Made by a program: the position numbers and the translations under genes. The notes under the pieces were generated by a model. The model worked only from the letters and a program-made list of their open reading frames with translations. It did not search any database and was not told the DNA's origin. Below are positions 7,560-46,195 of a stretch of DNA of 60,276 nucleotides, piece by piece (within the stretch, counting starts at the first letter, position 1; the number at the start of each line of letters is the position of its first letter). The stretch spans positions 1 to 60,276 of the forward strand of contig JAVBPT010000007.1 in assembly GCA_031549455.1 (NCBI GenBank). The letters run 5' to 3'. This DNA is from Eubacteriales bacterium (lineage in GTDB: Bacteria; Bacillota; Clostridia; Lachnospirales; JAKSVV01).

Positions 7560-7567
7560 GAGGGGAA

Positions 7568-9159: not shown

Positions 9160-12100
9160 ATGAAAAAAATTTTAGCAATATTGACGTTTGGCGTCTTGTT
9201 TATATATATTTTAAGAATGAATGTGACAGCGAGTGAGAATAAGATTGTTCGAGTGAGGAATCTGCAAATCACAAACCCCGGAGTTGTATATATCCCGGGA
9301 GAAAAGGTCAAGATTGACCTCTCTTTTAGTGATGCGATACAGGTAGACAATTATACCTTATTAAAACTAACACTGGAGCTCGGACTCAATAAGGACAGAC
9401 AAGCCACTTGTAAAGGGGTGAGTGGGAACACGATCCGTTTTGAATATACGATTCAAGATGGGGATGATGCTTTAAGCATCAAACATAGAAGAGATGCACT
9501 GAAATTAAATGGTGCGGTTATTACGGCTGTGGATGGAACCGTAAACGGGGCAACCCCAGCCTGGTATGAGCCTGGAGCGATTGTGTCTCGAGAGATTCGG
9601 GATGGGGTAAAAATCATCAAGGTGGATGACGCACAGGTCACGACATCAGAAATCGAAGGAGAGAATCAAACACCTGTATTGATCCTTGGAAATCTAAAAA
9701 GAGGAGAAAAGGTAACCATCCGTGTCAACGATGAGGAACTAAGCGATCAAGTGATGCCTCATCCGACCGTTGAGACGAGTCTGCCAAGGGTGGAATGGGC
9801 AATCCCTTTCACAGAAGAGTTTTTGTTGGGGGACAATGAAATAACAGGCGCGGTGACAACAGTAGACGGGAAGACGTTTGCAATAGAACCATTTACATAT
9901 ACGTATATAGACGTGAATGCACCGGAGATTGTATCCGTTGTGATATCGGACTATCCGAATGAGGAAGAATTTATAGAGGGAGAAAAGGCAACCATCACGG
10001 TTACCTTTAATGAAAAAATCAAGGGAGGAACCCCTAAGATCAGTTTTGGGGGCGTATTAACGTTAGCCAAAACAACAATGGTCAAAGTGAGTGATACGGT
10101 ATATCAATACGAGTATACGATTCCAAACACGGTAAAAGGAGAGGTAAAGGTCACCATCACCGGTGCAGAGGATTTGGCGGGCAATGTGATGGAGGATGCG
10201 GAGGAGATTAAAACATTTAAGGTGGCACCACTTGAGATTGATATTTACCTTACCTGGGAGGAAGCCACAGTGGGTGAGCAACAAATCTATGTGGAATTTA
10301 ATCGACCCATGAGTGAAGAGGTCGTGATTTCGGTCAAACAACAAGGAAGCGCCTTGACGGATGCCGTCAATTTCAACAACACCCTTCCGGACTTCGCTTA
10401 TAAGACGGACAATAAGGATCAGTATTTTAGAATCTGCCGGATCTGCTCGGATGGTTATCAGGGAAATGAGGACGGTGATGCGACTGTAAGCGTTCTTTTA
10501 AATGGAGTAAAGGCAGCAGAGAAAAGCTTTTTGGTGACAACCGGGACGCTACCAACTATTCCGACAGGGTACTATTATAAAGGCGGGAATATGTCGGAAG
10601 GCTATATCATTAGTGATATAGAGAATGATCAAGAGGATAAAGGCAACCAATTTGTTTGGATTCCGGCAAACGGATATAAGAATGGCGGTTTTTGGATTGG
10701 ACGATATGAGGCCTCTGGAACAGGAGCCTATAATGATACAACAGGTGCCTATGCAGGGGATGCACAAAGTAAGAAGGGATATATGCCATGGGTGGGAATC
10801 ACGCCCAATAGTGCAAGGCAGAAGACATCCAACTTCATTCCCGGAAACAATCCAGAGGTATATAGCAGGTCGGTCACAGATGAAGAGTGGGTTTTGATAT
10901 TTAAATATATTGCGCAAGAGAAGAATCTTACGAAATTTAAAAATGCCTCTTTTTTACGAGAGGTGGGCAATTATCAAGATAGTGTCATTCCGGGTACAAG
11001 TACAGCGGCTCCGGGAAGAGGGGAGAGACAAGTATCAGGGTTTCATGACTATTGGCAGCTCATGAATATTTATGATCTGGTTGGGAATGTGAATGAACAG
11101 ATGTATTCAGGTTCCACAGATTACGTGCTTACGCGGGGAGGACATTTTAAGCAATCGGCAGCTGGATTTCCACCACTTGCTGGGACGAGTCCAAGCGCGA
11201 CCACATCGGCGGACTGGAGAGGTTTTCGAATAGCGATGTTCTATAAGGAAAGCGTACAAATGACTCCAAGTCTGGGGGGAGAACTATTTGAGCGAAGTGG
11301 AGTGGGATCGAATACTGTGGCAGAAGGATATGTGGTAACAGATGAACCAAGTGGACTAGCAGGAGGAAATGAGTTTGTTTGGGCGCCAAGCGAGGGCAGC
11401 CCAAATGGGGGATTCTTTGTGGGAAGGTTTGAGGCGAGTGCAGAGGGGGAAGGACATAAGAAGACAGCCACAAGTAAACATGGCGTGGATGTAGCGGTGA
11501 ATGTAAGCTATTATGATGCCTCCATGGTAAGTTTTAAGTATGCCAAGGAAAGTGACCTCTTCACAAGTAGATTACTCACGGAGAAAAACTGGCAGGATAT
11601 ATTAGAACTTATGGCTGGGAAAGATGGGGATAATAAGTGGTACAATGACGTCAATGTAAGAGGAAGTGAACGGTATACTGTGTGGCAGGATGGGACAACC
11701 TGGGGGAATTATACCAATAGTGTGGCGCCTGCGAACATTTTGGGAGTAGGCGTGGAACAAGTGACAGGATACAGTGGCCTGGAAGGAAGAGGAGATGTTT
11801 GGTCCAAGAAACACATTCATGATCTTGCAGGAAATATGTTTGAGTGGATCCATTCGACAAGGACAGACTTTTCAGCGGATGGAATGGCACTGAAGGGTGG
11901 TGTTGTTGCTATAGAACTAGAGGATGCAAGCTATGCATCTTCTTCCCGCTCTGTCACTGCTACCGCAAAAATACCGTTAATCGGTTTCCGGTATGGATTA
12001 TTTTATAAGCCCGAGAGGTCAACGGATGTAACAAAACCAACCGTGAGCAAGATAGAGCTTTCAAAGTCGATTGAGGAATTGGGGTATACGAAGGGAGAAG

Positions 12101-14463
12101 AGATCACCATTCTTGTAACCTTTAGTGAGCCACTCAAAAATGGCACACCAAGGATCTCTTTTGATGGAGACGTCGTCTTATCCAAAACAGACATGGTAAA
12201 AACAGCCACCAATCAATACAAGTTTACGTATACCGTTCCAAATTATGATGGGGGAACGGTGGAGATCAATATAACTGACGCGGAGGATCAGGCAGGAAAT
12301 GTGATGAACGATGCGAATGCAATTAAAACCTTCGAGATGCTTCCGCTAGAGACGGACATCTATTTTACCTGGGATGAGGCCACAGTAGGAGAACAACAAA
12401 TATTTGTGGAGTTTAATCAAGCAGTCTTAGATGAAGTGGTTATTTCTACAAAGCAACAAGGAAGTGTGCTAGAAGAAGCGATTAACTTTAATTATATTTC
12501 ATCACTCGGCTATACTTCCAAAGAGGATAACAATTATCAGTACTTTAGGAACTATAGAATTCGTTCGGATGGGTATCAGGGGAATGAAGATGGAGAGGCA
12601 AAGGTAAAAGTGGTCGTAGATGGGAAAGTGGTAGCAGAGAAAAGTTTTATGGTTATAACCGGAATCTTACCTCCGATCCCAACAGGATATTATTATAGAG
12701 AGGGAAGCATGTCAGAGGGGTATGTCATCAGTGACATAGAGGATGACAAAAATAACGAAGGTAACCAATTCGTTTGGGTTCCGGCAAATGGATATAAGAA
12801 TGGAGGTTTCTGGATTGGGCGGTATGAGGCCTCTGGAACAGGAGCCTATAATTCGGGCACGGGGACTTATGCAGGGGATGCACAAAGTAAGAAGGGATAT
12901 ATGCCATGGACCAAAATTAGCCCCAATTCGGCCATTCAAAAGGCTGATGCTTTTATTACGAATGGAGAAGTGTATAGCAGACTGGTTACTATGCAGGAAT
13001 GGTATTTAATTTACAAGTATATTGCACAGGAGAAGACGCTCAATTGGTTTAACTCATCTCTTTCGAAGACAATAGGAAATTATAAAGATAGCGTCATTCC
13101 GGGTACAAGTACGCCGGTTCCGGGAAGAGGCGTAAAGCAGGTAGCGGGCTTTAGTGACTACTGGAAACAGATGAATATTTATGATCTGACAGGCAGTGTG
13201 AATGAGATAACTTATTTTGGACATCAGCAGTACATTACAATTTATGGTGGAAATTATCAGGAAAATGCGGCAGATTTTTCACCACTTGGTTTTAATAATC
13301 TACTTGCCACCTCGGCACAAGACTGGACAGGATTTAGATTGGCCATGTTTTATAAAGAAGAGGCCACTGCTCCACCGTATTTGGCGGGGGTAGATCTAAG
13401 AGAAAGACAAGAAATTACATCAAATACGCCAACAGGTGGATATGTGGTAACAGATGAACCAAGTGGACTAGCAGGAGGAAATGAGTTTGTTTGGATTCCC
13501 AATGAGGGTTATTTAAATGGAGGCTTCTTTGTGGGAAGGTTTGAGGCGAGCACAGATGGCGCTGGGCGCAATATAGTGGCGGAAAGTAAACAGGGCGCAA
13601 ACCTTGTTACGGACATCAACTATTTTGGTTCAGCTATGTTAAGCTTTAAGGTTCTAAAAGATGAAGACCTCTTTACAAGTAGATTGCTTACGGAAAAGAA
13701 TTGGCAGGATGTACTAGAATTTATAGCAGGGAGAAGAGCGAATAACACATGGTATACAGATGTCACCGCCACGACTAGTGAACGCTATAAAGTCTGGCAG
13801 AATGGGACCACATGGGGAAACTATATAGGAAACGAGGTTCCGGCTAATATCGCTGGAAGCGGAGAGATGCAGGTGGCCGGATATAGCGGTCTAGAAGGAA
13901 GAGGGGATGTGTGGTCTAAAAAGCATATCCATGATCTTGCAGGAAACGGATCAGAATGGTTACACTTTCCGGCTTCAAACTATGTAAATGGTCCTTCCTA
14001 TATTGCGGGATATTATTTTTCTGGGTCATCGGAGTCAGGAAAAAAGGCAACTGCCACGGCGGCGGTGCCTGCGAAAACGGGAATAACGAACTATTTAACT
14101 TTCCGTTACGCCTTATTTTATAAACCGCGAGCAGTAATCGATACCACAAAACCGATCGTGACCAAAGTGGAACTCTCTAAGCCGGCTATTGGGCCAGAGT
14201 ATGCAGCGGGGGAAGAGATTACCATCTTGGTAACCTTTAGTGAGCCACTAAAGAATGATACGCCAAAGATCTCCCTTGACGGACCTATTAGTACGGTGAA
14301 AACGGATATGGTGAAGACGGCCACCAACCAGTACAAATATACCTTCCCTCTCCCAAACAGCAGCGGAGGTATGGTAAATGTAAGCATAACGGATGCAAGC
14401 GATTTTTCGGGAAACATTATGCTGGATGCAGAAAATGTAATAAGCTTTAGCGTTATATCGTAA
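9160..14463 (+). CDS. Secreted 1767-aa surface protein with Ig-like domains and four FGE-sulfatase/C-type-lectin-like domains; paralog of 1..4155
   Basis: Signal peptide MKKILAILTFGVLFIYIL. Two tandem ~700-aa modules [Ig-Ig-CLecA-CLecB] plus a terminal Ig, with the same GN(E/Q)FVW, GGFxxGRxE, DLxGxxxE and FR motifs. Confidence 0.78.
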   Translation: MKKILAILTFGVLFIYILRMNVTASENKIVRVRNLQITNPGVVYIPGEKVKIDLSFSDAIQVDNYTLLKLTLELGLNKDRQATCKGVSGNTIRFEYTIQDGDDALSIKHRRDALKLNGAVITAVDGTVNGATPAWYEPGAIVSREIRDGVKIIKVDDAQVTTSEIEGENQTPVLILGNLKRGEKVTIRVNDEELSDQVMPHPTVETSLPRVEWAIPFTEEFLLGDNEITGAVTTVDGKTFAIEPFTYTYIDVNAPEIVSVVISDYPNEEEFIEGEKATITVTFNEKIKGGTPKISFGGVLTLAKTTMVKVSDTVYQYEYTIPNTVKGEVKVTITGAEDLAGNVMEDAEEIKTFKVAPLEIDIYLTWEEATVGEQQIYVEFNRPMSEEVVISVKQQGSALTDAVNFNNTLPDFAYKTDNKDQYFRICRICSDGYQGNEDGDATVSVLLNGVKAAEKSFLVTTGTLPTIPTGYYYKGGNMSEGYIISDIENDQEDKGNQFVWIPANGYKNGGFWIGRYEASGTGAYNDTTGAYAGDAQSKKGYMPWVGITPNSARQKTSNFIPGNNPEVYSRSVTDEEWVLIFKYIAQEKNLTKFKNASFLREVGNYQDSVIPGTSTAAPGRGERQVSGFHDYWQLMNIYDLVGNVNEQMYSGSTDYVLTRGGHFKQSAAGFPPLAGTSPSATTSADWRGFRIAMFYKESVQMTPSLGGELFERSGVGSNTVAEGYVVTDEPSGLAGGNEFVWAPSEGSPNGGFFVGRFEASAEGEGHKKTATSKHGVDVAVNVSYYDASMVSFKYAKESDLFTSRLLTEKNWQDILELMAGKDGDNKWYNDVNVRGSERYTVWQDGTTWGNYTNSVAPANILGVGVEQVTGYSGLEGRGDVWSKKHIHDLAGNMFEWIHSTRTDFSADGMALKGGVVAIELEDASYASSSRSVTATAKIPLIGFRYGLFYKPERSTDVTKPTVSKIELSKSIEELGYTKGEEITILVTFSEPLKNGTPRISFDGDVVLSKTDMVKTATNQYKFTYTVPNYDGGTVEINITDAEDQAGNVMNDANAIKTFEMLPLETDIYFTWDEATVGEQQIFVEFNQAVLDEVVISTKQQGSVLEEAINFNYISSLGYTSKEDNNYQYFRNYRIRSDGYQGNEDGEAKVKVVVDGKVVAEKSFMVITGILPPIPTGYYYREGSMSEGYVISDIEDDKNNEGNQFVWVPANGYKNGGFWIGRYEASGTGAYNSGTGTYAGDAQSKKGYMPWTKISPNSAIQKADAFITNGEVYSRLVTMQEWYLIYKYIAQEKTLNWFNSSLSKTIGNYKDSVIPGTSTPVPGRGVKQVAGFSDYWKQMNIYDLTGSVNEITYFGHQQYITIYGGNYQENAADFSPLGFNNLLATSAQDWTGFRLAMFYKEEATAPPYLAGVDLRERQEITSNTPTGGYVVTDEPSGLAGGNEFVWIPNEGYLNGGFFVGRFEASTDGAGRNIVAESKQGANLVTDINYFGSAMLSFKVLKDEDLFTSRLLTEKNWQDVLEFIAGRRANNTWYTDVTATTSERYKVWQNGTTWGNYIGNEVPANIAGSGEMQVAGYSGLEGRGDVWSKKHIHDLAGNGSEWLHFPASNYVNGPSYIAGYYFSGSSESGKKATATAAVPAKTGITNYLTFRYALFYKPRAVIDTTKPIVTKVELSKPAIGPEYAAGEEITILVTFSEPLKNDTPKISLDGPISTVKTDMVKTATNQYKYTFPLPNSSGGMVNVSITDASDFSGNIMLDAENVISFSVIS
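9950..14450 (+). repeat. Internal tandem duplication of about 2.1 kb within the 9160 gene
   Basis: Identical tracts 11326-11382 = 13438-13494 (57 nt, offset 2112) and 10750-10791 = 12868-12909 (42 nt, offset 2118); repeated protein motifs. Boundaries are approximate. Confidence 0.85.
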
Positions 14464-28986: not shown

Positions 28987-30426
28987 ATGAGTAAATATGA
29001 GAAAAGAAAACAGAAGAGGAATAGAAAAAGCTTTTTTGAAAGGCTTATTGTGATCACTTTTATGATGATTGTGACCTATCTTAGTTATTCTTTTTATATT
29101 TCCTATCAAAGCAGTAATACCATTGAAACCTTTGCACAGGTGGGAACGATGGAAAAGATTGTGGCAGGACGCGCCAAGATCATTAGGGACGAACAGATTC
29201 TTTATGCGCCCGCAAGCGGGGATATAGAGTACTACTATTTGGAAGGAGAAAAAGTAAAGAATAGCAGTAGGGTTATTAAGATTTACAAAAAGGATTTGAG
29301 TGTAGATATTGAAAAGAAGCTAGAGGAGATCGACCTTAACATTCTTAAGAAACAAGAAAAACGTGGGGATGTGTTGTATTACAATGATGAGATCAGAGAT
29401 ATTGATGCGTACATTTATGAACTTGTAAATGAATATATGAAATATAAGAACACCGACTATGTGTTTGACATTTATACATTAAAACGGGAGCTGCTCTCCA
29501 AAATATTGCAAAAGAGGGAATTGCTTGCAAGCGAAGAGACATCGTATACGAAGCAGGATACGGTGACACGAAATGATTACAACAACATGCTTGCCTCAAA
29601 TGTGAACTATATCACTGCGCCAGCTGGAGGGGTGATTTCTTATTATGTAGATGGATACGAGGAATATTTTACGGTGAGTAAGATCAAGATTTTAAATGAA
29701 AAATATTTACAGGTAGAACCCTCCAAATATATCATTACTTCTAAAAAGAATTATGTTAAGGAGAAAGAGGCGATTGCCAAAATCGTATCAACCGGAACCT
29801 GGTATATCACTGCGGTGCTTGATCAAAAACAAACAGAAGAATGGCAGGCCGGACAGGCGAAGAATATTCGAGTAAAAAATGTCAACGACGGAAATATTAA
29901 AGGGACCATTTATCATATTTTAGAGGATAAGAACAAGAACATTGTTACTTTTGTGGTGAGTCAGCAGCTCAATAAATATATGAGTTTTCGGGATATTGAG
30001 ATTGAGGTGATTGAAAGCAAGGTGGAGGGGATCAAAATACCCAAAGAGGCGATTATAAAAAAAGATTTACTGATTGTTCCAAATGAGTTTGTTAGCATCA
30101 ACCAAGGAAAGGAATATGTCATTCGATTGGAAGAAGGGCAAAAGAAAGCGGTCGGCGTTTCACTTCACTCCTCGGACGAGACATATGCTTATATAGAAGA
30201 AAGTGTTAAGGGAGTAAAACGCGGAGATGTGCTTGTGAGTTCAAAAGACAACAAGGAGACCACGCTAAGCGCGACAAAGGAGATTAGTGGAGTGAACATC
30301 TTAGTGGGCGATATTGTGATGTTTAAAAACATCAACATCATTGGCAGTAATCAGGAGGTTTGTATTGTGGATCAAAACGCGCCAAACAGCGTGAATGTTT
30401 ACGATAAAATAATTATAGAAAGTTGA
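28987..30426 (+). CDS. HlyD-like (barrel-sandwich hybrid/coiled-coil) membrane protein typically found upstream of yggS/sepF in Clostridia
   Basis: Basic N-terminus plus TM helix; APASG...EGEKV and APAGGVISYYVDGYE hybrid motifs flanking a helical region. Confidence 0.65.
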   Translation: MSKYEKRKQKRNRKSFFERLIVITFMMIVTYLSYSFYISYQSSNTIETFAQVGTMEKIVAGRAKIIRDEQILYAPASGDIEYYYLEGEKVKNSSRVIKIYKKDLSVDIEKKLEEIDLNILKKQEKRGDVLYYNDEIRDIDAYIYELVNEYMKYKNTDYVFDIYTLKRELLSKILQKRELLASEETSYTKQDTVTRNDYNNMLASNVNYITAPAGGVISYYVDGYEEYFTVSKIKILNEKYLQVEPSKYIITSKKNYVKEKEAIAKIVSTGTWYITAVLDQKQTEEWQAGQAKNIRVKNVNDGNIKGTIYHILEDKNKNIVTFVVSQQLNKYMSFRDIEIEVIESKVEGIKIPKEAIIKKDLLIVPNEFVSINQGKEYVIRLEEGQKKAVGVSLHSSDETYAYIEESVKGVKRGDVLVSSKDNKETTLSATKEISGVNILVGDIVMFKNINIIGSNQEVCIVDQNAPNSVNVYDKIIIES

Positions 30427-30433
30427 AAAACTA

Positions 30434-30461
30434 TTGACATGGAACTACGATATGATATAAT
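30434..30461 (+). promoter_or_regulatory. Sigma-A promoter of the sepF operon
   Basis: TTGACA (30434-30439), 16-nt spacer containing TG, TATAAT (30456-30461). Confidence 0.7.
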
Positions 30462-30520
30462 GTGGTAAACATTGATAGAGAAGTTGTTTTGAATTATATA
30501 TATTTTTTTGGAGGAAAAAA

Positions 30521-31114
30521 ATGGGGATATTTGGAAAATTAGGTGCGGCGCTTGGTTTATATGAGTATGAGGAGTATACTCCGGATGACGATGAAACCAC
30601 AACGGTTGGGTATGATAAAAGAGAATCAAAAGAAATGAGTATGAGCTATGCAAAACCTCAAACAAGTTTCACAACTCCTTTTCCACAACCTGAGCACTTG
30701 GGTTTTGATACAGACAAAAGCTTCGATTATAGTGGAACAAAACCATTTATGAAAGGATCTCCAAAGGTGATGAATTTTAATAGTGGTGATCAAATTAAGA
30801 TGATCGTGATTAATCCGGACAGTTATGATGAAGCAAGAGACATTTGCGACTACATACGTTCGAAGAGACCGGTTGTTGTCAATCTAGAAAATATGGATTA
30901 TGAAATTGCGCAAAGAGTGATGGACTTTTTGAGTGGCTCTTGTTATTCTCTAAATGGAAATATACAAAGAGTGGCAAAGAATATTTTTATTATTGCACCA
31001 GACAACATTGACGTGACTTCAGATTTTAAATCCGATATAAAGGGAAAAGGAACGCAACTTCCTTGGATGAATTTTTCAACCAAACAAAGTACAGGCACAA
31101 GTCTTAGAGGCTAA
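30521..31114 (+). CDS. sepF: Cell division protein SepF
   Basis: P.SYDEA..ICD....RPVVVNLE...AQRVMDFLSG..Y.LNG.IQRV...IFIIAP. Confidence 0.92.
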   Translation: MGIFGKLGAALGLYEYEEYTPDDDETTTVGYDKRESKEMSMSYAKPQTSFTTPFPQPEHLGFDTDKSFDYSGTKPFMKGSPKVMNFNSGDQIKMIVINPDSYDEARDICDYIRSKRPVVVNLENMDYEIAQRVMDFLSGSCYSLNGNIQRVAKNIFIIAPDNIDVTSDFKSDIKGKGTQLPWMNFSTKQSTGTSLRG

Positions 31115-31377
31115 TGATGCAAATAGAGGTGCTTAAGGTTGCGGTTCGGTATTTTATAGAGGTGCTGATGTATTTGATTTTCTTTAGAGCCTTACTTTCC
31201 TGGCTTCCGCTTGGACAGAATCGGCTAACAAACTTTTTGGATGCGGTGACAGAACCGGTGGTAAAACCCATTCGGAGCCTGCTTTCAAAATCCAGTTTTC
31301 TAAACAATATGTCAGTTGATTTCTCTCCGTTCTTTGCATTTTTGCTACTTAGTTTTTTGTCAAGTTTATTTATGTAA
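31114..31377 (+). CDS. YggT/YlmG family membrane protein
   Basis: RALLSW, VTEPVVKPIR, DFSP motifs; follows sepF. Confidence 0.88.
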   Translation: MMQIEVLKVAVRYFIEVLMYLIFFRALLSWLPLGQNRLTNFLDAVTEPVVKPIRSLLSKSSFLNNMSVDFSPFFAFLLLSFLSSLFM

Positions 31378-31385
31378 GAGGAAGT

Positions 31386-31835
31386 ATGATCATATTAAGT
31401 ATATTAGTAGCATTGGATCAGGTTGCAAAATACTTTTTTAAAAGGTTATTGCAACCTTATTATATTGAGTATGGGATAAAAGGGCTCATGAGTTTTTTGT
31501 ATGTGGAAAATCGTGGAGCCGCTTTTGGCATTTTTCAAGGCAAGGCTTTCTTTCTCATATTGGTTCCAATTCTTTCAATCTTTCTTTTGCAGTATATGAT
31601 GTACCTAAATCATAAAGAGGAGAAAAGTAGGCTATTACACTATGCACTGATCCTGATTATGGCAGGAGCAATTGGCAATCTGATCGATCGGATTGCCAGA
31701 GGATATGTGATCGACTTTATTCAGCTTGAATTTATAGATTTTCCGGTTTTTAACTTGGCAGATTGCTATGTAAACATCGGTTGTTTTCTTCTGGTTTTAT
31801 CGTGTTTTATAAAGAAGGATGAAGTAGATGGATGA
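31386..31835 (+). CDS. lspA: Lipoprotein signal peptidase II
   Basis: DQ..K, NRGAAFG, GAIGNLIDR, VIDFI, FNLAD. Confidence 0.93.
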   Translation: MIILSILVALDQVAKYFFKRLLQPYYIEYGIKGLMSFLYVENRGAAFGIFQGKAFFLILVPILSIFLLQYMMYLNHKEEKSRLLHYALILIMAGAIGNLIDRIARGYVIDFIQLEFIDFPVFNLADCYVNIGCFLLVLSCFIKKDEVDG

Positions 31836-32760
31836 GAAAATAGAGGCGTTTTCATATGTTGTGGAAGAGGCGGGGAGATTAGACTTATATCTAACCTCGA
31901 GTTTTGATGATTACTCCAGAACCTACATTCAGAAGCTCATTAAAGAGGACCATGTGCTTGTGAACGGGGTGAGTAGAAGAGCGAGTTATATTCTGAAAAA
32001 AGATGATGTGGTGACGTTGCAGGTTAAACCACCCCAAGAGACGGCTGTTTTGCCTGAGGACATTCAGCTGGATATTTTATATGATGATGATGATATTGTG
32101 ATTGTGAATAAAAAACAGGGGATGGTGGTCCATCCCGCGCCTGGAAATAATAGTGGTACACTTGTCAATGCGTTGGTCTACCATTATAAGGATAAACTCT
32201 CAGAGGTCAATGGCGTTTTAAGACCGGGGATTGTCCATCGGATTGATAAAGATACGGCGGGCATTCTTGTCGTTGCTAAAAACACCAAGGCACACATAGA
32301 CCTATCTGAGCAGTTTAAGGTACATAGCATTACTAGAGTATATCATGCAATTGTGGTTGGCAATATGAAAGAGGATAAGGGGACGATTGATAAACCCATT
32401 GGCAGATCAGAAAAAGACAGGAAAAAAATGGAGGTCACCACTAAAAACAGTAGAAGAGCGGTTACAAATTTTAGGGTTTTGGAACAATTAGACGGTTTTA
32501 CCCATGTGGCCTGTAGGCTTGAGACGGGCAGAACACATCAGATCAGAGTTCACCTATCCTATATCGGATATCCCATTTTGGGGGATCAAACGTATCAGAG
32601 AAATCAAAGTTTAAATGAGAAATATAGCCTCGAAGGTCAGCTTTTATTTGCAAAGAAATTGGGATTTATTCATCCCACCACGAGAGAATATATTGAGTTT
32701 GAGGTGGAGCTACCAGATTATTTTAAAGAGATGTTAGAAAGATTAAAGGCGAGGAATTAG
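31828..32760 (+). CDS. rluD: RluA/RluD-family pseudouridine synthase with S4 domain
   Basis: RLD...SR..IQKLI S4 domain, VNK..GMVVHP, HRIDKDT catalytic Asp, TGRTHQIRVH. Confidence 0.88.
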   Translation: MDEKIEAFSYVVEEAGRLDLYLTSSFDDYSRTYIQKLIKEDHVLVNGVSRRASYILKKDDVVTLQVKPPQETAVLPEDIQLDILYDDDDIVIVNKKQGMVVHPAPGNNSGTLVNALVYHYKDKLSEVNGVLRPGIVHRIDKDTAGILVVAKNTKAHIDLSEQFKVHSITRVYHAIVVGNMKEDKGTIDKPIGRSEKDRKKMEVTTKNSRRAVTNFRVLEQLDGFTHVACRLETGRTHQIRVHLSYIGYPILGDQTYQRNQSLNEKYSLEGQLLFAKKLGFIHPTTREYIEFEVELPDYFKEMLERLKARN

Positions 32761-33632
32761 GTCTCCACAGCCACTTCCTGAGGCTTTGCTACTGTATATA
32801 GAATGTCTATGTATGCATTTGTAGTCATGGCAAGAAGATCGTCCCCCTCTATTTGCATTCCTTGATTTAGGTGATCGCACACAAGTGATTTTAAGGAGAA
32901 AAGGGACTCTTCATCCGATAAATTCAAATCGCTTGCTACAAGCAAGGTAACCATTGCGGCATTTAAATCCGCGTCATAGGTAAGATTTTCTAGCTGATCA
33001 TCGGTTACATCATATTTAGAACAGAACTCACTATTTTTACTTGTGAAGTCTTGAATTCGGATGTCCCGACCTTCTATAAATAAAAGCTTGAGTCGGTTTA
33101 AAGAGGTTTTTAGACTCGGAATCAGAACACTAGGATTCTCTTCAACTTCTTCCGTTCCAAAAAGCGAGACAAATATTTTGAGTCGTGAGGCAAGTCCATC
33201 AAAGCTTTTTGACAGAAGGAATGGGCACTTATTGACCATCCGAATTGGATTCAATCCAAGACACTTTATGGACTCCAAAGAGGAAATCATATTTTCCTCA
33301 GAGCAGGTGAGCGACTTTGGGTTGGTTTCTAGGACCTTTTTCCAGTCGAGAGAAATGCCATTGCAGCTTAATTCTCTTAACTGTTCCGCTCTGGTATTGA
33401 TTGTCTCCATACGATGGTCTAATAGTTTTGTAGAAAAGCATAACTGTTCCCCTTTTAACTTAAGGGAGAGCATTTTTTTATAGTCAAGTCCAAGTTGTCG
33501 AATGTTTAAAACCTTCATAAAAGCGGTTTCGCACGTGGTGGCGGTGTCTCCCTGATAAGCGATTAAGATTTTTAGTAAGTATTCGGCTTCACTTTTGGTG
33601 AACCCTTTTTCCATAATCTCTTCTATTCTCAT
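32757..33632 (-). CDS. Hypothetical protein with mTERF-like helical repeats (~291 aa)
   Basis: AAAAGG RBS before ATG 33632. Repeats NPKSLTCSEENM...LGL, CPFLLSKSFDGL..RL and NPSVLIPSLKTSLNRL, with prolines 32 and 30 aa apart. Confidence 0.6.
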   Translation of the reverse strand: MRIEEIMEKGFTKSEAEYLLKILIAYQGDTATTCETAFMKVLNIRQLGLDYKKMLSLKLKGEQLCFSTKLLDHRMETINTRAEQLRELSCNGISLDWKKVLETNPKSLTCSEENMISSLESIKCLGLNPIRMVNKCPFLLSKSFDGLASRLKIFVSLFGTEEVEENPSVLIPSLKTSLNRLKLLFIEGRDIRIQDFTSKNSEFCSKYDVTDDQLENLTYDADLNAAMVTLLVASDLNLSDEESLFSLKSLVCDHLNQGMQIEGDDLLAMTTNAYIDILYTVAKPQEVAVET

Positions 33633-33650
33633 ATTCAACCTTTTTGGAAG

Positions 33651-33679
33651 ATTATACCATTTCCATGGAGCTCTGTCAA
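33651..33679 (-). promoter_or_regulatory. Perfect-consensus extended sigma-A promoter for the mTERF-like gene
   Basis: Minus strand: TTGACA (33679-33674), 17-nt spacer ending TGG, TATAAT (33656-33651). Confidence 0.85.
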
Positions 33680-33758
33680 TACCATTCAGAGATTTTATAT
33701 TGTAAAAACATTTTTTAGTTATATAATAAGTGTAAGAATCTTGTCGAAAGAGGTCCAT

Positions 33759-36305
33759 ATGAGAGGTAAAATAGTTTTATTGTTTTTCATTTGCATAACC
33801 AGTCTATTGTTTTCAATATCTGCATGGGCGGATTTTAGTGATCTAAAATCCACAAGCTGGGCATACCATCCGGTGAAGCAACTAGTGGGTAAAAATGTTT
33901 TAACAGGATATCCAGACGGGACATTTAGACCAGATGCCTTTGTGTCTCGCTATGAGTTCGCAAAGATTATGACGCTTGCCATCAATCTGTCGAATGCAAC
34001 CAATGTGGAAGAAACTTTTTTGGATGTCAAACAGGCCAGCTGGGCCTATCCTTATGTTGAAGCAAGCAAGTTTTATCTTTCGGGTTACAATATATCAGGC
34101 GATTCCTATTTTATGGGAAATGAAGAGGCCGTTCGAGAAGACATGGCGGTTGCACTTGTAAAGGCCCTAAGTATTGAGGTTGGAAACGATGATACAGAGG
34201 CGTTAAAAACCATCTTTAAAGACCATCAGGAGATTGCTTCAAACCTCAAAAAGTATGTTTTGGCCGCCTATAAGAATGGACTCATTAGCGGATATCCGGA
34301 TGGCACGTTTCGTCCCCAAGGAAAGATCACAAGAGCAGAAACGGCCAGCCTGCTCATTAAGGTGATGGGCTCAGAGGCGATTAAGAAGGTGAGCTACGAC
34401 GAATTTGGAAAGATTAAACACACTGTGAACGTGACGTCCACCTATCCGGAGAGAGACCAAAAGGACGTTCTATCAGGAAAACAAGTGATTAAGGTATGGT
34501 TTAGCAACGTGCTGGGAAGGCCTTTACATGGTGAGTACTGGGGCGCACGAGTGATGAATAAAAACGGAGAGATCATTGCGAATAAGATCAATTTTGCGGA
34601 TGAGAATCTCATCACCATTGATGCCGATCTACTTGCCGAGGAAACCTATACTGTGACCCTAAAGGGGTTAGTGGATCGGTATCAAAATCGAATAGAAGAG
34701 AATAGCTTTACTTTTAACACAAAAGAAAATGATAAGAGCGGAGTGGGCTCGACAGTGCCAGCAAGCGGGGTGACCATTCAAACCGTAAAAGAGATCCGGG
34801 TAATCTATTTAAAAGATGTGAATCTTACTCTTGACCAGTTTTACATCGAGGATGAGATGGGTGTGAGCAAAAAGCATCTGTTCTCTGAATGTGTTATGGA
34901 ATCAGAAAGAGTAGCAGTATTTAAAATGGCAGAGGGAGCACTTACTGGTGGGAAATATACTATCACACTACTTGGGGTAAGAGAGATAGGCAAAGAAGTC
35001 TTGCCAACGTATCAGTTTTCCTTTACTGTAACCCAGGAAAAGGCAAGCTTTAATTTCCTGGGTTCGGTGCCGTCCAACGGCTCGCGGATCGATGTTTCGG
35101 GAACCAATCTGCTGCTTAGTTTTGACAAAGAAATCACAAAAGAGAACGTGAAGGTTACCATTACACCCAATCGCGATGGGAAGGCCACGTATGATGTGGG
35201 GATGGATAAACTAGAACCAAGAAAATTGATGATTACGTTAAATCATTTAGAAGAGAATACCGATTATCATATTTTGATAGAAGGCATTTGGGATGCGGAC
35301 AAGACCTCCGCACTGAGGGTTAATTTATACCACATGACAAAAACCACCACCAAGTTCTTGAGTATTAGCCCCAAAGACAACAGCTCCATTCTTGCATCAG
35401 ACAGCTATGCAACCTTATACTTCAGTGATAAGGTGGATATTTCAAAGGCAAAGGCCACCATTGATCCCAATCACAATGGAGAGACGAAACTAGAATTAAA
35501 GTATAGTGAAGGAGCCCTCCCAAAGGAGACCTTGCTGTTATACTTTAAAAATTTGGAGGCCAATAAAAAGTATGATATTTTGATTGATGGTTTGAGAACC
35601 ACCTCAGGTGCTCTGATGGTTCCGATTCAACTGGTTTATACCACCATCGAAACAAGTAAGGTCTCGATCATCAAAACAAATGTCAGTCAGGGTCAAAAAA
35701 ATGTGAAACGAAACCAAGTCTTTTCAATCGAGTTTAGTCAGGGGGGAATTGATTCAAAGTATGTTGCGGGAAGAAGCCTAAGGCTTGAGATGTGGAGGGA
35801 CGGAAAGTATGAGTACTCCTATGAACATTTGTTTAAGAATGAAAAAGGGGATCAGGTTTTCATCTATTTTGATAAACCACTAAAAGCACAATCGAATTAT
35901 ACGATCAAGGTGAAGGATATTTTGGATCAACAGGGGAACCAAATACACGATGTATATGAGTTGAACTTTACAACGGGGGATGTACTAGAAGAGAATAAGG
36001 AAAAACTCGTTCTGGGAGATTATAGTGAAGCCGCTAAAAAGGGCGAGGTGTATATAGTAGATCAGAATCATACAAAGATATTGAAGATAGAGATTGATGA
36101 AGCGGCTAAAAAGATACTCGATAAACTCTTTAAAGCAGACGGGACATACAACACGGATCTTGTAACGATTCATGTTGGCACAACGGGTTCGGGATTGGGT
36201 AAGCAGGAGCTGAGAATTTATAATCTAAACGGGTGGTCGGCATTGTTTGACGGCACCTGCAGTGATGAGGATTTTGAGAAATATATGGAACAAAAAGCAA
36301 GGTGA
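33759..36305 (+). CDS. S-layer homology (SLH) protein with multiple Ig-like (SbsA/Big_5-type) domains
   Basis: Signal peptide ending AWA; SLH motifs FSD...WA, GYPDGTFRP..(VS/IT)R.E; repeated 'S.P......V.....I...F' Ig-like units. Confidence 0.85.
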   Translation: MRGKIVLLFFICITSLLFSISAWADFSDLKSTSWAYHPVKQLVGKNVLTGYPDGTFRPDAFVSRYEFAKIMTLAINLSNATNVEETFLDVKQASWAYPYVEASKFYLSGYNISGDSYFMGNEEAVREDMAVALVKALSIEVGNDDTEALKTIFKDHQEIASNLKKYVLAAYKNGLISGYPDGTFRPQGKITRAETASLLIKVMGSEAIKKVSYDEFGKIKHTVNVTSTYPERDQKDVLSGKQVIKVWFSNVLGRPLHGEYWGARVMNKNGEIIANKINFADENLITIDADLLAEETYTVTLKGLVDRYQNRIEENSFTFNTKENDKSGVGSTVPASGVTIQTVKEIRVIYLKDVNLTLDQFYIEDEMGVSKKHLFSECVMESERVAVFKMAEGALTGGKYTITLLGVREIGKEVLPTYQFSFTVTQEKASFNFLGSVPSNGSRIDVSGTNLLLSFDKEITKENVKVTITPNRDGKATYDVGMDKLEPRKLMITLNHLEENTDYHILIEGIWDADKTSALRVNLYHMTKTTTKFLSISPKDNSSILASDSYATLYFSDKVDISKAKATIDPNHNGETKLELKYSEGALPKETLLLYFKNLEANKKYDILIDGLRTTSGALMVPIQLVYTTIETSKVSIIKTNVSQGQKNVKRNQVFSIEFSQGGIDSKYVAGRSLRLEMWRDGKYEYSYEHLFKNEKGDQVFIYFDKPLKAQSNYTIKVKDILDQQGNQIHDVYELNFTTGDVLEENKEKLVLGDYSEAAKKGEVYIVDQNHTKILKIEIDEAAKKILDKLFKADGTYNTDLVTIHVGTTGSGLGKQELRIYNLNGWSALFDGTCSDEDFEKYMEQKAR

Positions 36306-36421
36306 TTTTTCATCTTGCTTTTTGTTAGGATGCTCCTCATGACACAAATTTTTTCAAAAGGCTGAGCCATATACTTTTTACTTTTTTTATGATACAATCT
36401 AGACAAAACAAGGAGAAAATC

Positions 36422-37657
36422 ATGATACCACTAGCGGAAAGGATCCGTGCAGAGAAAATTGAAAATGTGGTGGGGCAAAAGCATTTGCTTGCACCCGGGA
36501 AAGTACTACGCAAGCTTATTGAGCAGAATGAGTGTGTCAATATGATCTTTTATGGGCCCTCTGGGGTGGGAAAGACAACCGTTGCCAACATTCTAGCAAA
36601 CGGTGTGAAGAAGACTTTATATAAGCTCAATGCAACCAATGCTTCCGTAAAAGACATTCATGCGATTATTGCGGATCTTAATCGACTGGACACCCAAAAT
36701 GGGGTGGTTCTCTATCTGGATGAGATCCAAAACTTTAATAAAAAGCAGCAACAATCTCTTCTTGAATATGTGGAAAGAGGGGATATTACACTCATTGCAA
36801 GCACCACGGAAAATCCATATTTTTACGTCTATGGGGCACTTTTAAGCCGGTGCCTGGTTTTTGAGTTTAAAAAGATTGAACCGAGCGAGATTAAAGAATT
36901 CCTGGAGCGGGTTTGTGAAGAGGAGAAGATTGAGCTGGAAGAATCAGCCATTTTCCATATCTCGAACTTTGCAAACGGGGATATTCGGAGGGCTTTAAAT
37001 GTGATCGATATTCTAATGATCGATCACCCAAAAGGGAAAAAAATTACTTTGTCTGAGGTTGAGGATACAATCGGACTTAAATATATGGATTATGATAAAT
37101 ATGGAAACAACCATTACGATATTCTAAGTGCTTTTCAGAAGTCTATTCGGGGAAGTGACCCAGATGCGGCACTTCATTACTTGGCAAGGCTAATCGAGGC
37201 CGGAGACCTTTTCTCAATTATAAGAAGATTACTTGTGATTGCGGCAGAGGATGTGGGACTTGCCTACCCAAGCGCGATCACGGTTGTAAAATCTTGCACC
37301 GATGCGGCCAAAGAGGTGGGCTTTCCCGAGGCAAAGATTCCTCTTGCGGAGGCGGTCATCCTTCTTGCAATCTTACCAAAGTCAAACTCAGCCGTAGAGG
37401 GGATTGATGCTGCTCTTAGAGATCTCGAAACAAAGGATGTGGGAGCGATCCCGCTTCACATCCGTGACGTGAATAGCGCGATGAAGAAAAATAAAGGGAT
37501 GTATGTGTATCCTCATGATTATCCAAACCATTATGTGGATCAGGCTTATCTGCCAGAGAAGATTAAAAATCAGGTTTATTATGACTTTGGAAATAATAAG
37601 TTTGAGGATGGCTTGAAAAAATATTGGGAAGAAATAAAGAAAAGTGGTCAAAAATAA
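36422..37657 (+). CDS. rarA: Replication-associated recombination protein A (MgsA/RarA AAA+ ATPase)
   Basis: PLAERIR, VGQKHL, GPSGVGKTT, STTENPYF, SAFQKSIRGSDPDAA, PKSNS; AAGGAG RBS. Confidence 0.92.
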   Translation: MIPLAERIRAEKIENVVGQKHLLAPGKVLRKLIEQNECVNMIFYGPSGVGKTTVANILANGVKKTLYKLNATNASVKDIHAIIADLNRLDTQNGVVLYLDEIQNFNKKQQQSLLEYVERGDITLIASTTENPYFYVYGALLSRCLVFEFKKIEPSEIKEFLERVCEEEKIELEESAIFHISNFANGDIRRALNVIDILMIDHPKGKKITLSEVEDTIGLKYMDYDKYGNNHYDILSAFQKSIRGSDPDAALHYLARLIEAGDLFSIIRRLLVIAAEDVGLAYPSAITVVKSCTDAAKEVGFPEAKIPLAEAVILLAILPKSNSAVEGIDAALRDLETKDVGAIPLHIRDVNSAMKKNKGMYVYPHDYPNHYVDQAYLPEKIKNQVYYDFGNNKFEDGLKKYWEEIKKSGQK

Positions 37658-44317: not shown

Positions 44318-44365
44318 AAATCATTTAAGTTGATTAAAATTGAAATAGGAAAGGGGGCCTTAAAG

Positions 44366-46195
44366 ATGATTAGACATACTGCTCCATACAATGTTTCGCA
44401 GATATTTTCAAATGAGAAAAGTATCTTATATAAGATACCAAAGTATCAAAGGGAGTATACCTGGGGAACAAAAGAGTGGAATTTATTGTTCGATGATATC
44501 GTGGAAAACGGAAACGGGTATTTTTTGGGATCGATCATTTGTGTTGATTCAAGCAACAATGCAATGGGAGATACTATTTTAGAAGTAATTGATGGACAAC
44601 AGAGAGTGACATCCTTATCACTTTTATTGTTGGCATTATACGAAAAAATAAGCAAGTTTAAGGAGAGTTTTAATGAGGAGGAGGTTACCAATCTCGTGAA
44701 TATTAAAAGGGAATTGGTGACGCAAAAGGACGACTTTCATAGGCCGAGGCTTGTCCCCCAAATCCAAAACAACAACATGGATGACTATTTGAGTTTGCTG
44801 ACAGAGAAGGGACTTCTAAAAGACTATGAAAAGAAACCAAATGCCGGCAATAGGAGAATATATCGTGCATATTATCACTTTTCAAATTTGATTGAAAAAG
44901 AGGTGGTGGAAGAGTTAAAGGAAGATGATAGTTTAACAGAAGTAAAAATCCTATTTGATCTGGTGAACAAATTTAATTCGGCGGTCATTGTGACAATAGA
45001 GGTGGAGACGCATAAAGATGCGTACATGCTTTTTGAGTCGCTGAATAATAGAGGAGTTCCCTTATCTGCAATTGACTTGCTGAAGAATTTGCTGATTAGC
45101 ATATCGGACAATCAAGGGAAGGCAGAAGAATGTTATTCGAGATGGAAAAAGATACTTAGATATTTGGGAGATGACTACGCTGTGCAAGAACGTTTTTTTA
45201 GACAGTATTATAACGCATACCGTGAACATCTAAATAAGCCTTTCCCCAATGAGGGGAAAACAAAATACTATCTTGGATATTTGGCGACGAAAACGACGCT
45301 TCTGGATATCTATGAAAAGATAATTAAATTGAACTATGAAGAGTTTTTAGATAATGTAGAAATAGAGGCCAGGAATTATTCTATTCTTATCAATAATGCC
45401 AGCGAGGAAGATGCAATTTGTGACCTGGAAAGACCATTGTTAAACCTTGAGAAAATTCAGGGATCACCATCCTATCTGCTTCTACTATATTTATTAACGA
45501 ACAGGGATGACTTGGGAATGGACAACCAAATATTGATAGAGGTAATCAATTACCTGACCAAATTTTTTGTTCGAAGGAATATAACAGACTTTCCGAACAC
45601 AAGGAATCTAAATAAAATATTTATGGACATCGTGGCGGGCATATCTACAAAGAAGGGGAAAGAAGCATTGGCATTCATCAAATCAGAACTCAAAGAAAAT
45701 GCATCTGGTGATCCGATATTTGAAGAAAAGTTGCGGGGCCCATTGTACTATGCAAATGTTGATAGCACACGATTTTTGCTTTGCTATTACGAAGAAAAAT
45801 GCAAGACAAATGAGATTTATACGGATCTTTGGGAAAAGGATAAAAATAGTAAGTATATATGGACAATTGAACATATTTTTCCGGAAGGAGAAAACATTCC
45901 AAACAGCTGGGTTGATATGATTGCGGATGGGGATAAGGATCTAGCCTATGAATATTTGAACAATTATGTTCATACACTAGGAAATCTTACGATTACTGGA
46001 TACAATCAAAACCTTAGCAATTTAGCCTTTAGAGAGAAAAAGGACAGGACAAACAAAGAAGGAAATTATATAGGATATAAAAACGGACTCAAACTGAATG
46101 AGGATGTTGTGAATCAAGAAAGTTGGAAGATAGAGAATATAAAATCGAGAACGGATAAACTGGTCAAAGATTTTATAGAAGACTTCAAACTATAA
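44366..46195 (+). CDS. GmrSD-family type IV modification-dependent restriction endonuclease (DUF262 + DUF1524)
   Basis: IPKYQREYTW, DGQQR and FESLNNRG (DUF262); IEHIFP...LGNLT...N HNH-like (DUF1524). Confidence 0.85.
   Translation: MIRHTAPYNVSQIFSNEKSILYKIPKYQREYTWGTKEWNLLFDDIVENGNGYFLGSIICVDSSNNAMGDTILEVIDGQQRVTSLSLLLLALYEKISKFKESFNEEEVTNLVNIKRELVTQKDDFHRPRLVPQIQNNNMDDYLSLLTEKGLLKDYEKKPNAGNRRIYRAYYHFSNLIEKEVVEELKEDDSLTEVKILFDLVNKFNSAVIVTIEVETHKDAYMLFESLNNRGVPLSAIDLLKNLLISISDNQGKAEECYSRWKKILRYLGDDYAVQERFFRQYYNAYREHLNKPFPNEGKTKYYLGYLATKTTLLDIYEKIIKLNYEEFLDNVEIEARNYSILINNASEEDAICDLERPLLNLEKIQGSPSYLLLLYLLTNRDDLGMDNQILIEVINYLTKFFVRRNITDFPNTRNLNKIFMDIVAGISTKKGKEALAFIKSELKENASGDPIFEEKLRGPLYYANVDSTRFLLCYYEEKCKTNEIYTDLWEKDKNSKYIWTIEHIFPEGENIPNSWVDMIADGDKDLAYEYLNNYVHTLGNLTITGYNQNLSNLAFREKKDRTNKEGNYIGYKNGLKLNEDVVNQESWKIENIKSRTDKLVKDFIEDFKL

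Follow-up and report, generated by a model that had tools for sequence, protein, structure and literature searches.

Prokaryotic mTERF-like tandem-repeat proteins that bind DNA, named pTERF, first appeared in print in 2024 (Nucleic Acids Res 2024;52:10464, PMC11417379). There, pTERF1 binds ACTNNNAGTC with a Kd of 1.87 nM, pTERF2 binds a different motif, and the canonical P8/L11/18/25 features are given as absent from pTERF1. The canonical unit, as the same text quotes it from Roberti et al. (2009), carries a proline at position 8 and hydrophobic residues at positions 11, 18 and 25. Organellar members act on DNA or RNA: MTERF4, whose concave face binds double-helical RNA, dimerizes with NSUN4 and brings it to the immature large subunit of the mitoribosome (PMC8208988). 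In chloroplasts, plant mTERF9 promotes ribosome assembly, and mTERF6 has been proposed to prevent collision between the rpoA cluster and petD, which converge, as a roadblock or as a terminator working in both directions (PMC7909791). In the literature on plants and animals the mTERF family is still stated to be absent from prokaryotes (PMC12977773, 2026). A preliminary description of the locus analysed here placed these repeats mainly in mitochondria and plastids, a fair statement, yet the prokaryotic pTERF has been in print since 2024. A further arrangement is a two-gene bacterial cassette, in which one or more basic mTERF-like proteins are encoded with a small acidic mini-mTERF partner; an acidic partner gene was present in all seven of the other bacterial mTERF loci that we read, in small-genome Bacilli and in one Clostridia-type genome.

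The gene described here lies in a stretch of 60,276 nucleotides, analysed whole and called the window below, which holds Clostridia-type genes such as those for SipL and SLH proteins. The features of the locus are the following.

31828..32760, plus strand: RluA-family (RluD-like) pseudouridine synthase with an S4 domain, convergent (Pfam PseudoU_synth_2 123.9 bits, S4 34.1 bits)
32119..32136, minus strand: most terminator-like hairpin after the mTERF-like gene, some 620 nt beyond its stop codon and antisense inside rluD
32757..33632, minus strand: coding sequence of the mTERF-like protein (P0001, 291 residues), from the open reading frame and its translation, stop codon included
32760..33014, minus strand: acidic C-terminal tail, residues 207-291, computed net charge -15, pI 4.05
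33012..33158, minus strand: residues 159-207, comprising the last partial unit (NPSVLI...) and the C-terminal cap, which ends in FTSKNSEFCSKY and aligns with its counterparts in P0003 and the P0039 family
33063..33629, minus strand: repeat region of about five mTERF units (residues 2-190 by hhalign against six mTERF proteins); Pfam PF02536 covers residues 73-189
33159..33257, minus strand: canonical mTERF unit, residues 126-158 (P137, L140, L147, F154), unit model 19.1 bits, exact motif
33258..33359, minus strand: canonical mTERF unit, residues 92-125 (P105, L108, M115, I122), unit model 10.2 bits, exact P8-h11-h18-h25
33639..33643, minus strand: ribosome-binding site AAAGG, read from the sequence, 6 nt upstream of the ATG at 33632
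33651..33679, minus strand: sigma-70/sigma-A type consensus promoter TTGACA-17-TATAAT with a TG extension, promoter score 12/12
33700..36305, plus strand: SLH / Big_5 cell-surface protein gene with a promoter-like site (33700-33727, 10/12), divergent, likely ATG at 33759, after GAAAGAGG

The mTERF-like gene is a real gene, with 291 intact codons, a ribosome-binding site and a promoter that, as had been stated, is a perfect extended TTGACA-17-TATAAT (12/12: TTGACA at 33679-33674, a 17-nt spacer with TG, TATAAT at 33656-33651). This exact TTGACA-N17-TATAAT occurs once in the window, where 0.03 would be expected, and at least once in 3 of 100 shuffles. Another promoter scoring 12/12, its spacer 16 nt long, precedes sepF (30434-30461), so perfect promoters are not peculiar to the mTERF-like gene. 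Its -35 box and that of the SLH gene stand back to back, 20 bp apart. The gene caller proposed a longer version of 333 amino acids starting at 33758; this form is unlikely, because it would enclose the gene's own promoter, lacks a ribosome site, overlaps the start region of the divergent SLH gene and adds 42 residues for which no matches were obtained. Nearly all the other genes of the window lie on the opposite strand. The codon fit of the mTERF-like gene is the lowest among the 28 genes of the window, by a small margin, and is compatible with foreign origin and with weak selection alike.

Sequence and profile evidence support the assignment of the protein to the mTERF repeat superfamily, as a very divergent bacterial member, in agreement with what had been proposed from its repeats. 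By Pfam alone the result is borderline, since PF02536 gives the 291-residue form 23.0 bits for a cut-off of 23.1 (24.9 bits for the 333-residue form), and an M3 peptidase of another genome, which is unrelated, reaches 21.4 bits. Against 1.84 billion representative proteins, phmmer returned 42 other matches at E up to 1e-3 (best 2.3e-13), every one of which exceeds the Pfam mTERF cut-off (35.8-144 bits). The profile comparison came out positive by hhalign, in which P0001 and P0003, its closest relative, matched six classical Pfam mTERF proteins taken from these 42 with a probability of 99.4% (E 6.2e-22, 193 columns, residues 2-190). Against the PDB, a profile of P0001, P0003 and the P0039 family matched human MTERF1 (5.1e-10) and MTERF3/MTERFD1 (2e-8), all nine matches being mTERF proteins, while the profile of P0001 and P0003 gave weak matches (E 0.025-0.17), seven of eight to mTERF; the single sequence used as phmmer query found no mTERF in the PDB and two chance matches (E 0.63). 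No family of NCBIfam, PHROGs or PADLOC matched the protein.

The repeat region consists of about five units of 30-44 residues, two canonical and three degenerate. The peptides quoted in the preliminary description, WKKVLETNPKSLTCSEENMISSLESIKCLGLN, PIRMVNKCPFLLSKSFDGLASRLKIFVSLFG and EVEENPSVLIPSLKTSLNRLKLL, the degenerate IRQLGLDYKKML...KLLDHRMETINTRAEQL and the closing FTSKNSEFCSKY, are all present in the minus-strand translation of 32757-33632. A model of the unit, 32 residues long and derived from 158 units in 40 other proteins, gives this protein 34.2 bits (maximum of 200 shuffles, 4.0); it recognizes clear units at residues 96-121 (10.2 bits) and 126-151 (19.1 bits), as well as two that are weak and partial. 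Two units, at P105 and, 32 residues on, at P137, match the P8/h11/h18/h25 motif exactly, and 36 of 2000 shuffles also reached two or more matches; the motif is partial at P167 and lost in units 1 and 2, where Q27 replaces the unit proline and unit 2 has an insertion. As a caveat on the repeats, none of the 10 pairwise comparisons among the five units was significant (best z 2.0, equalled in 15 of 300 shuffles).

Downstream, the array is closed by the C-terminal cap usual in the family, a Firmicutes-type cap that aligns with those of relatives; the cap model scores it weakly here, with 5.8 bits over residues 165-214 (maximum of 300 shuffles, 3.4) as against 21.5 bits in P0003. The tail (residues 207-291) matched nothing in Pfam at E up to 10, found itself alone in a word search of 5.8 billion proteins, and does not align with the P0003 tail (z 0.1; 435 of 1000 shuffles equal or better). 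The idea that it is a fused acidic partner or an extra mTERF unit was rejected, with hhalign giving 0.2% to acidic partners and 0.06% to mTERF. The repeat region, at pI 8.4 and net +3, is slightly basic (compared with +10 for P0039 and +13 for the P0003 repeats), and the whole protein is acidic (pI 4.84). A short array, far less basic than those of the relatives, in an acidic protein weakens the case for nucleic-acid binding.

The mTERF-like gene stands alone in its genome and lineage, that of a small-genome gut bacterium. A word search with the protein found only itself, and the only close relative, P0003, is a metagenomic protein of 330 residues from an uncultured organism (73-kb contig; sources NCBI, ENA and Logan), 24% identical over 215 residues (BLASTP E 4e-17); the two repeat regions align with a z of 24, and 0 of 1000 shuffles did as well. 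These two singletons make up the subfamily, and the 43-row alignment with the mTERF-like protein has no conserved stretch. The gene was found in none of 60 relatives of the order and none of 398 genomes of the class. The search of 400 genomes of the phylum gave one true holder, itself alone among the 31 genomes of its own order; two Pfam matches were discarded there, one (G371) a false positive that is an M3 oligoendopeptidase and the other (G228) presumably the same peptidase, because it comes from the same genus with equal frame length and score. By comparison, 20 of 150 genomes in one order of small-genome Bacilli carry mTERF-like genes. No match was found by tblastn in phage and plasmid records, and no pattern match was confirmed among 86 in IMG/VR (profile of P0001, P0003 and the P0039 family), 186 in GTDB contigs and 303 in JGI metagenomes (both with the P0001 and P0003 profile). 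One DNA sample with the full gene is labelled invertebrate gut metagenome, a label that is not independent, because the sample may be the source of the assembly.

The reading that we favour, with somewhat better than even confidence, is that this bacterial mTERF protein is a solenoid nucleic-acid binder, likely a regulator or roadblock acting on double-stranded DNA, which was acquired horizontally and has strongly diverged. The gene would most likely have come by horizontal transfer from a Firmicutes pool of mTERF-like genes, and most likely the repeat array folds into a helical solenoid that binds nucleic acid, as judged from the relatives. By analogy, the protein probably binds nucleic acid; our best guess for the ligand is sequence-specific double-stranded DNA, as for pTERF1 and pTERF2, and for the role that of a local transcription regulator or roadblock, with an acidic tail that may tune binding or bring in a partner. 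Binding to RNA would be the second possibility.

The alternative that survives best, although we regard it as rather unlikely, is that the protein does not bind nucleic acid and is a protein-binding scaffold, or that the gene is the fast-evolving remainder of an mTERF cassette acquired by transfer, with its function reduced or lost. The charge points that way, with a pI of 4.84 for the whole protein and just +3 on the repeats, as do the degeneration of three of the five or so units, the absence of the small acidic partner gene that accompanies all seven other bacterial loci read, its isolation as a singleton whose one relative is 24% identical, and the lowest codon fit among the 28 genes. A decayed or repurposed gene is less easily reconciled with an intact frame of 291 codons behind a 12/12 promoter and a ribosome site, with the full canonical motif retained in two units, or with the cap, which is kept.

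The convergent junction has suggested more specific roles. The 4-nt overlap with the end of rluD was correctly described, as the plus-strand frame ends at 32760 and the minus-strand frame at 32757. The RluD-like neighbour (TIGR00005 311.8 bits, above cut-off; RluD equivalog 254.3 bits, below its cut-off of 351) is the final gene of a sepF-yggT-lspA-rluD row, and since it converges with the mTERF-like gene the two are separate transcription units. In a polar roadblock, the protein would bind DNA at or near the junction and stop both transcripts from running through each other. We consider this improbable. In its favour, no intrinsic-terminator-like site was detected on the plus strand from the rluD stop (32760) to 36691, or on the minus strand in the 80 nt past the stop of the mTERF-like gene, and the best minus-strand candidate is the hairpin some 620 nt inside rluD (-14.9 kcal/mol, z -2.3; 6 of 200 shuffles fold at least as well); directly past the two stops, folding does not exceed that of shuffled sequence (z 0.08 and -0.52). 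Both convergent units have strong consensus promoters, and mTERF6 (PMC7909791) offers an analogy in a chloroplast system with bacterial-type polymerase. However, Rho, which is encoded in the genome (587.5 bits, above cut-off), can end such transcripts; convergent genes often lack hairpin terminators, and relatives handle rluD without an mTERF-like gene. RNA-library contigs from run X2 span sepF and, at the gene junction, only 32641-32808, as one 158-nt contig with a strand switch at 32726/32808, and those of run X3 cover nothing; being metatranscriptome contigs and not reads, they can show neither transcription nor its absence. A more elaborate version is less credible still: the protein would be the two-gene cassette in a single chain, its tail taking the place of the separate acidic partner as a built-in nucleic-acid mimic or autoinhibitor, and would act as a polar DNA roadblock that prevents collision of the terminator-less sepF-rluD operon with the antisense transcript from its own strong promoter. 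If true, it would be a bacterial counterpart of mTERF6, for which such a role is proposed, and of MTERF1, for which it is known.

The preliminary description also suggested an rRNA-modification helper, which would guide or assist the neighbouring RluD-type synthase on large-subunit rRNA as MTERF4 delivers NSUN4. We regard this suggestion as very improbable, and the preliminary description itself conceded that the adjacency to rluD might be a coincidence. All that speaks for it at this locus is the contact of the two genes, with their 4-nt end overlap, which resembles the MTERF4-NSUN4 module in that an mTERF-type gene adjoins the gene of an rRNA-modifying enzyme; elsewhere there are the MTERF4-NSUN4 dimer and the role of mTERF9 in ribosome assembly (PMC8208988, PMC7909791). 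Against it, the genes are convergent, with separate promoters, and not co-transcribed; an S4 RNA-binding domain is part of this RluD, whereas NSUN4 lacks one (PMC8208988); and the adjacency is not conserved, as in each of the three relatives read, whose RluD proteins are 60%, 54% and 53% identical, the genes after rluD are unrelated and run in its direction. The mTERF-like gene is missing from all 60 relatives of the order, although rluD is present in all five of those searched, and the other bacterial mTERF-like loci read adjoin varied housekeeping genes. The flanks of the mTERF-like gene showed no meaningful repeats as insertion scars, the window no tRNA, and 30000-37000 no Rfam family.

Finally, a spurious frame, or a chance Pfam match on an unrelated helical protein, might be suspected from a score at threshold that the peptidase about equals and from a strand opposite to nearly all the window genes, but is hardly conceivable given 42 of 42 independent mTERF matches, 99.4% by hhalign, the likeness to P0003 (E 4e-17; z 24, no shuffle of 1000 as good) and the promoter and ribosome site.

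The mTERF-like gene is a rare further member of a group of which one 2024 paper describes DNA-binding prokaryotic versions. On its own it raises no question beyond those of other bacterial mTERF loci; its ligand, if found, would help to separate transcription regulator, roadblock and RNA factor for bacterial mTERFs, and to tell whether an acidic module belongs to the mechanism. The pTERF proteins (PMC11417379) resemble this one in occurring rarely, in uncultured Bacillota-type gut bacteria known only from metagenome assemblies, in having tandem mTERF-annotated units (about five here, within a pTERF range of 3 to 11), and in their distant identity to eukaryotic mTERFs; the 46 homologs in Supplementary Table S11 of that paper might include P0003 or the mTERF-like protein itself. 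They differ in that two units here keep the canonical motif exactly whereas pTERF1 is described without it, and in that DNA binding was measured for pTERF1 and pTERF2 and is proposed here by analogy; the acidic 85-residue tail and the array of about five units with three degenerate also set the mTERF-like protein apart from pTERF. With human MTERF1 and MTERF3/MTERFD1 (PDB 3MVA, 3N6S, 5CRJ, 3M66; PF02536) it shares homology at the profile level, the canonical motif of the units and an s...F..ky type of C-terminal cap, although it is encoded by a bacterial chromosomal gene and not by a nuclear gene for an organelle protein, and has fewer and more degenerate units, an acidic tail and a threshold Pfam score. 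P0003 has an equal unit order, the shared cap and an acidic C-terminal extension of similar length (net -8), but one additional N-terminal unit and much more basic repeats (+13). The two-gene cassette has in common with this locus the superfamily, the Firmicutes-type cap and an acidic module that accompanies the repeat array, whereas here there is a single gene and not a tandem cluster: no same-strand acidic mini-mTERF frame of 127-154 residues adjoins it, the partner profile has no match in its own genome (98.3% complete), and the acidity lies in a fused tail unlike the partners (hhalign 0.2%). The locus adds to the known systems a bacterial protein with the canonical eukaryote-type motif, found a single time in its whole lineage, which has an acidic tail where other loci have an acidic partner gene.

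P0001 (291 residues, window 32757-33632, minus strand) sits at the threshold of the Pfam mTERF model PF02536, scoring 23.0 bits (residues 73-189) where the cut-off is 23.1. This score by itself cannot decide its identity; an M3 oligoendopeptidase of another genome reaches 21.4 bits. A single-sequence search of the PDB gave nothing relevant, and a word search of 5.8 billion clusters recovered P0001 alone. At the sequence level, mTERF membership is settled by a full HMMER scan of 1.84 billion representatives, in which 42 other proteins came up at E <=1e-3 (best 2.3e-13), all 42 being Pfam mTERF proteins above cut-off. Profile-profile comparison of P0001 and its nearest relative, the 330-residue metagenomic protein P0003, with six of them gave 99.4% probability (E 6.2e-22, residues 2-190). 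With the family of P0039, a 237-residue bacterial mTERF-like protein, added to the profile, nine of nine PDB matches were mTERF proteins, all of them human MTERF1 (5.1e-10) or MTERF3/MTERFD1 (2e-8); from P0001 and P0003 alone, the same proteins still lead (7/8 matches), but more weakly (E 0.025-0.17). The bacterial mTERF-type identity proposed in the preliminary description thus appears sound, the family profiles supporting it where the Pfam model falls just short.

Cutting at the 'lG' turns divides P0001 into five units:
Residues 1-47: unit 1, degenerate, with Q27 where relatives carry the unit proline
Residues 48-91: unit 2, degenerate, containing an insertion
Residues 92-125: unit 3, canonical
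Residues 126-158: unit 4, canonical
Residues 159-about 190: unit 5, partial, continuing into a cap that ends FTSKNSEFCSKY

The repeats are visible only via the family, because pairwise comparison shows no significant likeness among the units (best z 2.0). A 32-residue unit model, derived from 158 units in 40 other proteins, reaches 34.2 bits on P0001 (maximum 4.0 in 200 shuffles), locating units at 96-121 and 126-151, and the textbook pattern as quoted in PMC11417379 (proline 8; hydrophobic 11, 18 and 25) fits exactly at P105 and P137, spaced 32 residues. The cap is alignable with those of P0003 and Firmicutes mTERF-like proteins; a cap model (19 copies) gives P0003 21.5 bits and P0001 a weak 5.8 bits, in the correct place and exceeding all 300 shuffles. 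Over the repeats the protein is mildly basic (net +3, pI 8.4), and residues 207-291 form an acidic tail (net -15, pI 4.05) rich in leucine and aspartate. This tail had zero matches in Pfam and resembled neither mTERF profiles (0.06%), nor the also acidic tail of P0003 (z 0.1), nor any other protein of the word-indexed collection.

The gene occupies a minus-strand open frame from 33758 to 32757, 333 codons at longest, in the following setting:
30434-30461: promoter of the sepF-yggT-lspA-rluD row, 12/12 consensus with TG extension and a spacer of 16 nt, 60 nt upstream of sepF
Plus strand, end overlapping the P0001 gene end by 4 nt: RluA-family, RluD-like pseudouridine synthase gene with S4 domain, last of that row
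33679-33651, minus strand: promoter TTGACA-N17-TATAAT with TG extension, score 12/12
33700-33727, plus strand: promoter-like site (promoter scan) of a divergent SLH/Big_5 surface-protein gene (Pfam), likely start 33759

Translation most likely begins with the ATG at 33632, giving 291 residues, with an AAAGG ribosome site 6 nt 5' of it. The ATG at 33758 shows no ribosome site on inspection, lies upstream of the promoter and would run into the start region of the SLH gene, and the 42 additional residues gave zero family matches. The promoter, the window's single exact TTGACA-N17-TATAAT (chance expectation 0.03; present in 3/100 shuffles), is as perfect as first described, and the frame coordinates bear out the 4-nt overlap. 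An exact 8-nt direct repeat, AATGGTAT (minus strand, 33654-33661 and 33679-33686, 25 nt apart), adjoins both promoter hexamers and may well be chance, given the AT-rich 241-nt stretch. The rest of the window is ordinary Clostridia-type chromosome (LeuRS, SipL, GyrA, HolB, PilT, RarA, GatA/B, AddA, MnmG), from a 1.48-Mb assembly of 98.3% completeness. It also holds, immediately 3' of addA (44330-46195), a gene for a restriction endonuclease of GmrSD type (type IV, modification-dependent), and two very large ORFs, one of 1767 residues with no Pfam family (9160-14463) and one of 1383 residues whose sole match is an FGE-sulfatase-like stretch (4-4155); a relative's genome has a 1746-residue ORF near rluD.

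Among relatives, pTERF1 and pTERF2 recognise defined motifs in double-stranded DNA with nanomolar Kd (PMC11417379), the concave face of MTERF4 binds double-helical RNA (PMC8208988), and plant mTERFs bind DNA or RNA, mTERF6 being a proposed roadblock between convergent chloroplast genes (PMC7909791). By analogy with these activities, the repeats of P0001 most likely form a nucleic-acid-binding solenoid, with DNA as the likelier ligand. A role as roadblock or regulator fits the local facts, which do not show it: the promoters of P0001 and the SLH gene are back-to-back, 20 bp apart, a plus-strand scan from the rluD stop to 36691 found no terminator-like site, and the best minus-strand hairpin sits 620 nt inside rluD; however, the genome encodes Rho. 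Against nucleic-acid binding of any kind stand the short array of P0001, its three degenerate units and its repeat region's low charge. It is very improbable that P0001 helps RluD in rRNA modification, as had been suggested: RluD orthologues are present in 5/5 searched relatives (50-60% identity), but in the loci of the three of them that were read, the genes after rluD are unrelated and co-directional, never mTERF-like, the two genes converge here, and this RluD has its own S4 domain. The preliminary description had already allowed for coincidence in this adjacency. At the convergent junction, a 158-nt RNA-library contig (32641-32808) changes strand at 32726/32808. Overlapping sense and antisense RNA may have produced this switch as a cDNA artefact, or it may simply stem from assembly.

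The other bacterial mTERF-like loci that were read carry a small partner gene. An adjacent same-strand acidic ORF was found in 7/7 loci read (L011, L029-L033 and L008), among them:
L011, 8001-12053: mTERF-like locus of a Bacilli MAG

The mTERF-like proteins of these loci are basic (net +2 to +20) and the ORFs acidic (127-154 residues, net -10 to -20); the latter are mutually alignable, and the three scanned with Pfam are mTERF (28.9-54 bits). In the genome of P0001, in contrast, a search with the profile of these partners found none, and an acidic tail is fused instead, which might take the partner's part; the two have no sequence likeness (0.2%). The L011 cluster is preceded (5887-7936) by a 126-residue sigma-70 region-4 gene piece. 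A large serine recombinase of 561 residues adjoins this piece, an arrangement resembling a skin-type element that interrupts a sporulation sigma gene. At L029, a 497-residue ORF (5887-7380, minus strand) combines a complete cytidylate kinase domain (240.6 bits) with an mTERF-like region (86 bits), through fusion or because a stop or start was missed.

P0001 and P0003 share 24% identity across 215 residues (E 4e-17); both are singletons, and a joint search gave no third subfamily member. A search of 60 genomes of the order, among them the sole same-family genome (69% complete), did not recover the gene, nor did a search of 398 scored genomes of the class (two more unscored) with the profile of P0001, P0003 and the P0039 family. 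In a 400-genome phylum sample, three genomes had Pfam mTERF matches. One match was rejected as an M3 oligoendopeptidase, and a second, from the same genus, presumably as the same peptidase. The third is genuine, a 441-residue protein (144.5 bits) with a 154-residue acidic protein (54 bits), in the one genome, out of 31 from its order, that has such genes. By comparison, mTERF-like genes occur in 20/150 other genomes of the order to which an uncultured small-genome Bacilli MAG belongs, often in tandem clusters. All 20 HMMER matches looked up are metagenomic, on contigs <=877 kb, 19 in singleton clusters and none meaningfully named. Searches of phage and plasmid records and defence families found no association of P0001. 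Its gene has GC and GC3 typical for the window and, by a small margin, the lowest codon fit among 28 window genes. The patchy distribution suggests an old horizontal acquisition from the Firmicutes pool. In-frame stops abound (<=17 per match) in a related cluster carried by the chromosome of a 'Clostridium sp.' MAG of 1.5 Mb (L012, G845:C1 207000-210450), from assembly error or decay.

Plant papers such as PMC12977773 still describe the mTERF family as absent from prokaryotes, and the literature searches turned up a single paper, from 2024, on prokaryotic mTERF-like proteins (PMC11417379); P0001 therefore extends a known group and is, judged by its sequence, a very divergent new bacterial mTERF. 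The pTERF section of that paper makes no mention of a small acidic partner. NSUN4 depends on MTERF4 because it has no RNA-recognition domain (PMC8208988), in contrast to the S4-bearing RluD here. In the strict sense P0001 is a candidate pTERF, and it is distinguished by its canonical motif, its lone occurrence, its acidic tail and its missing partner.
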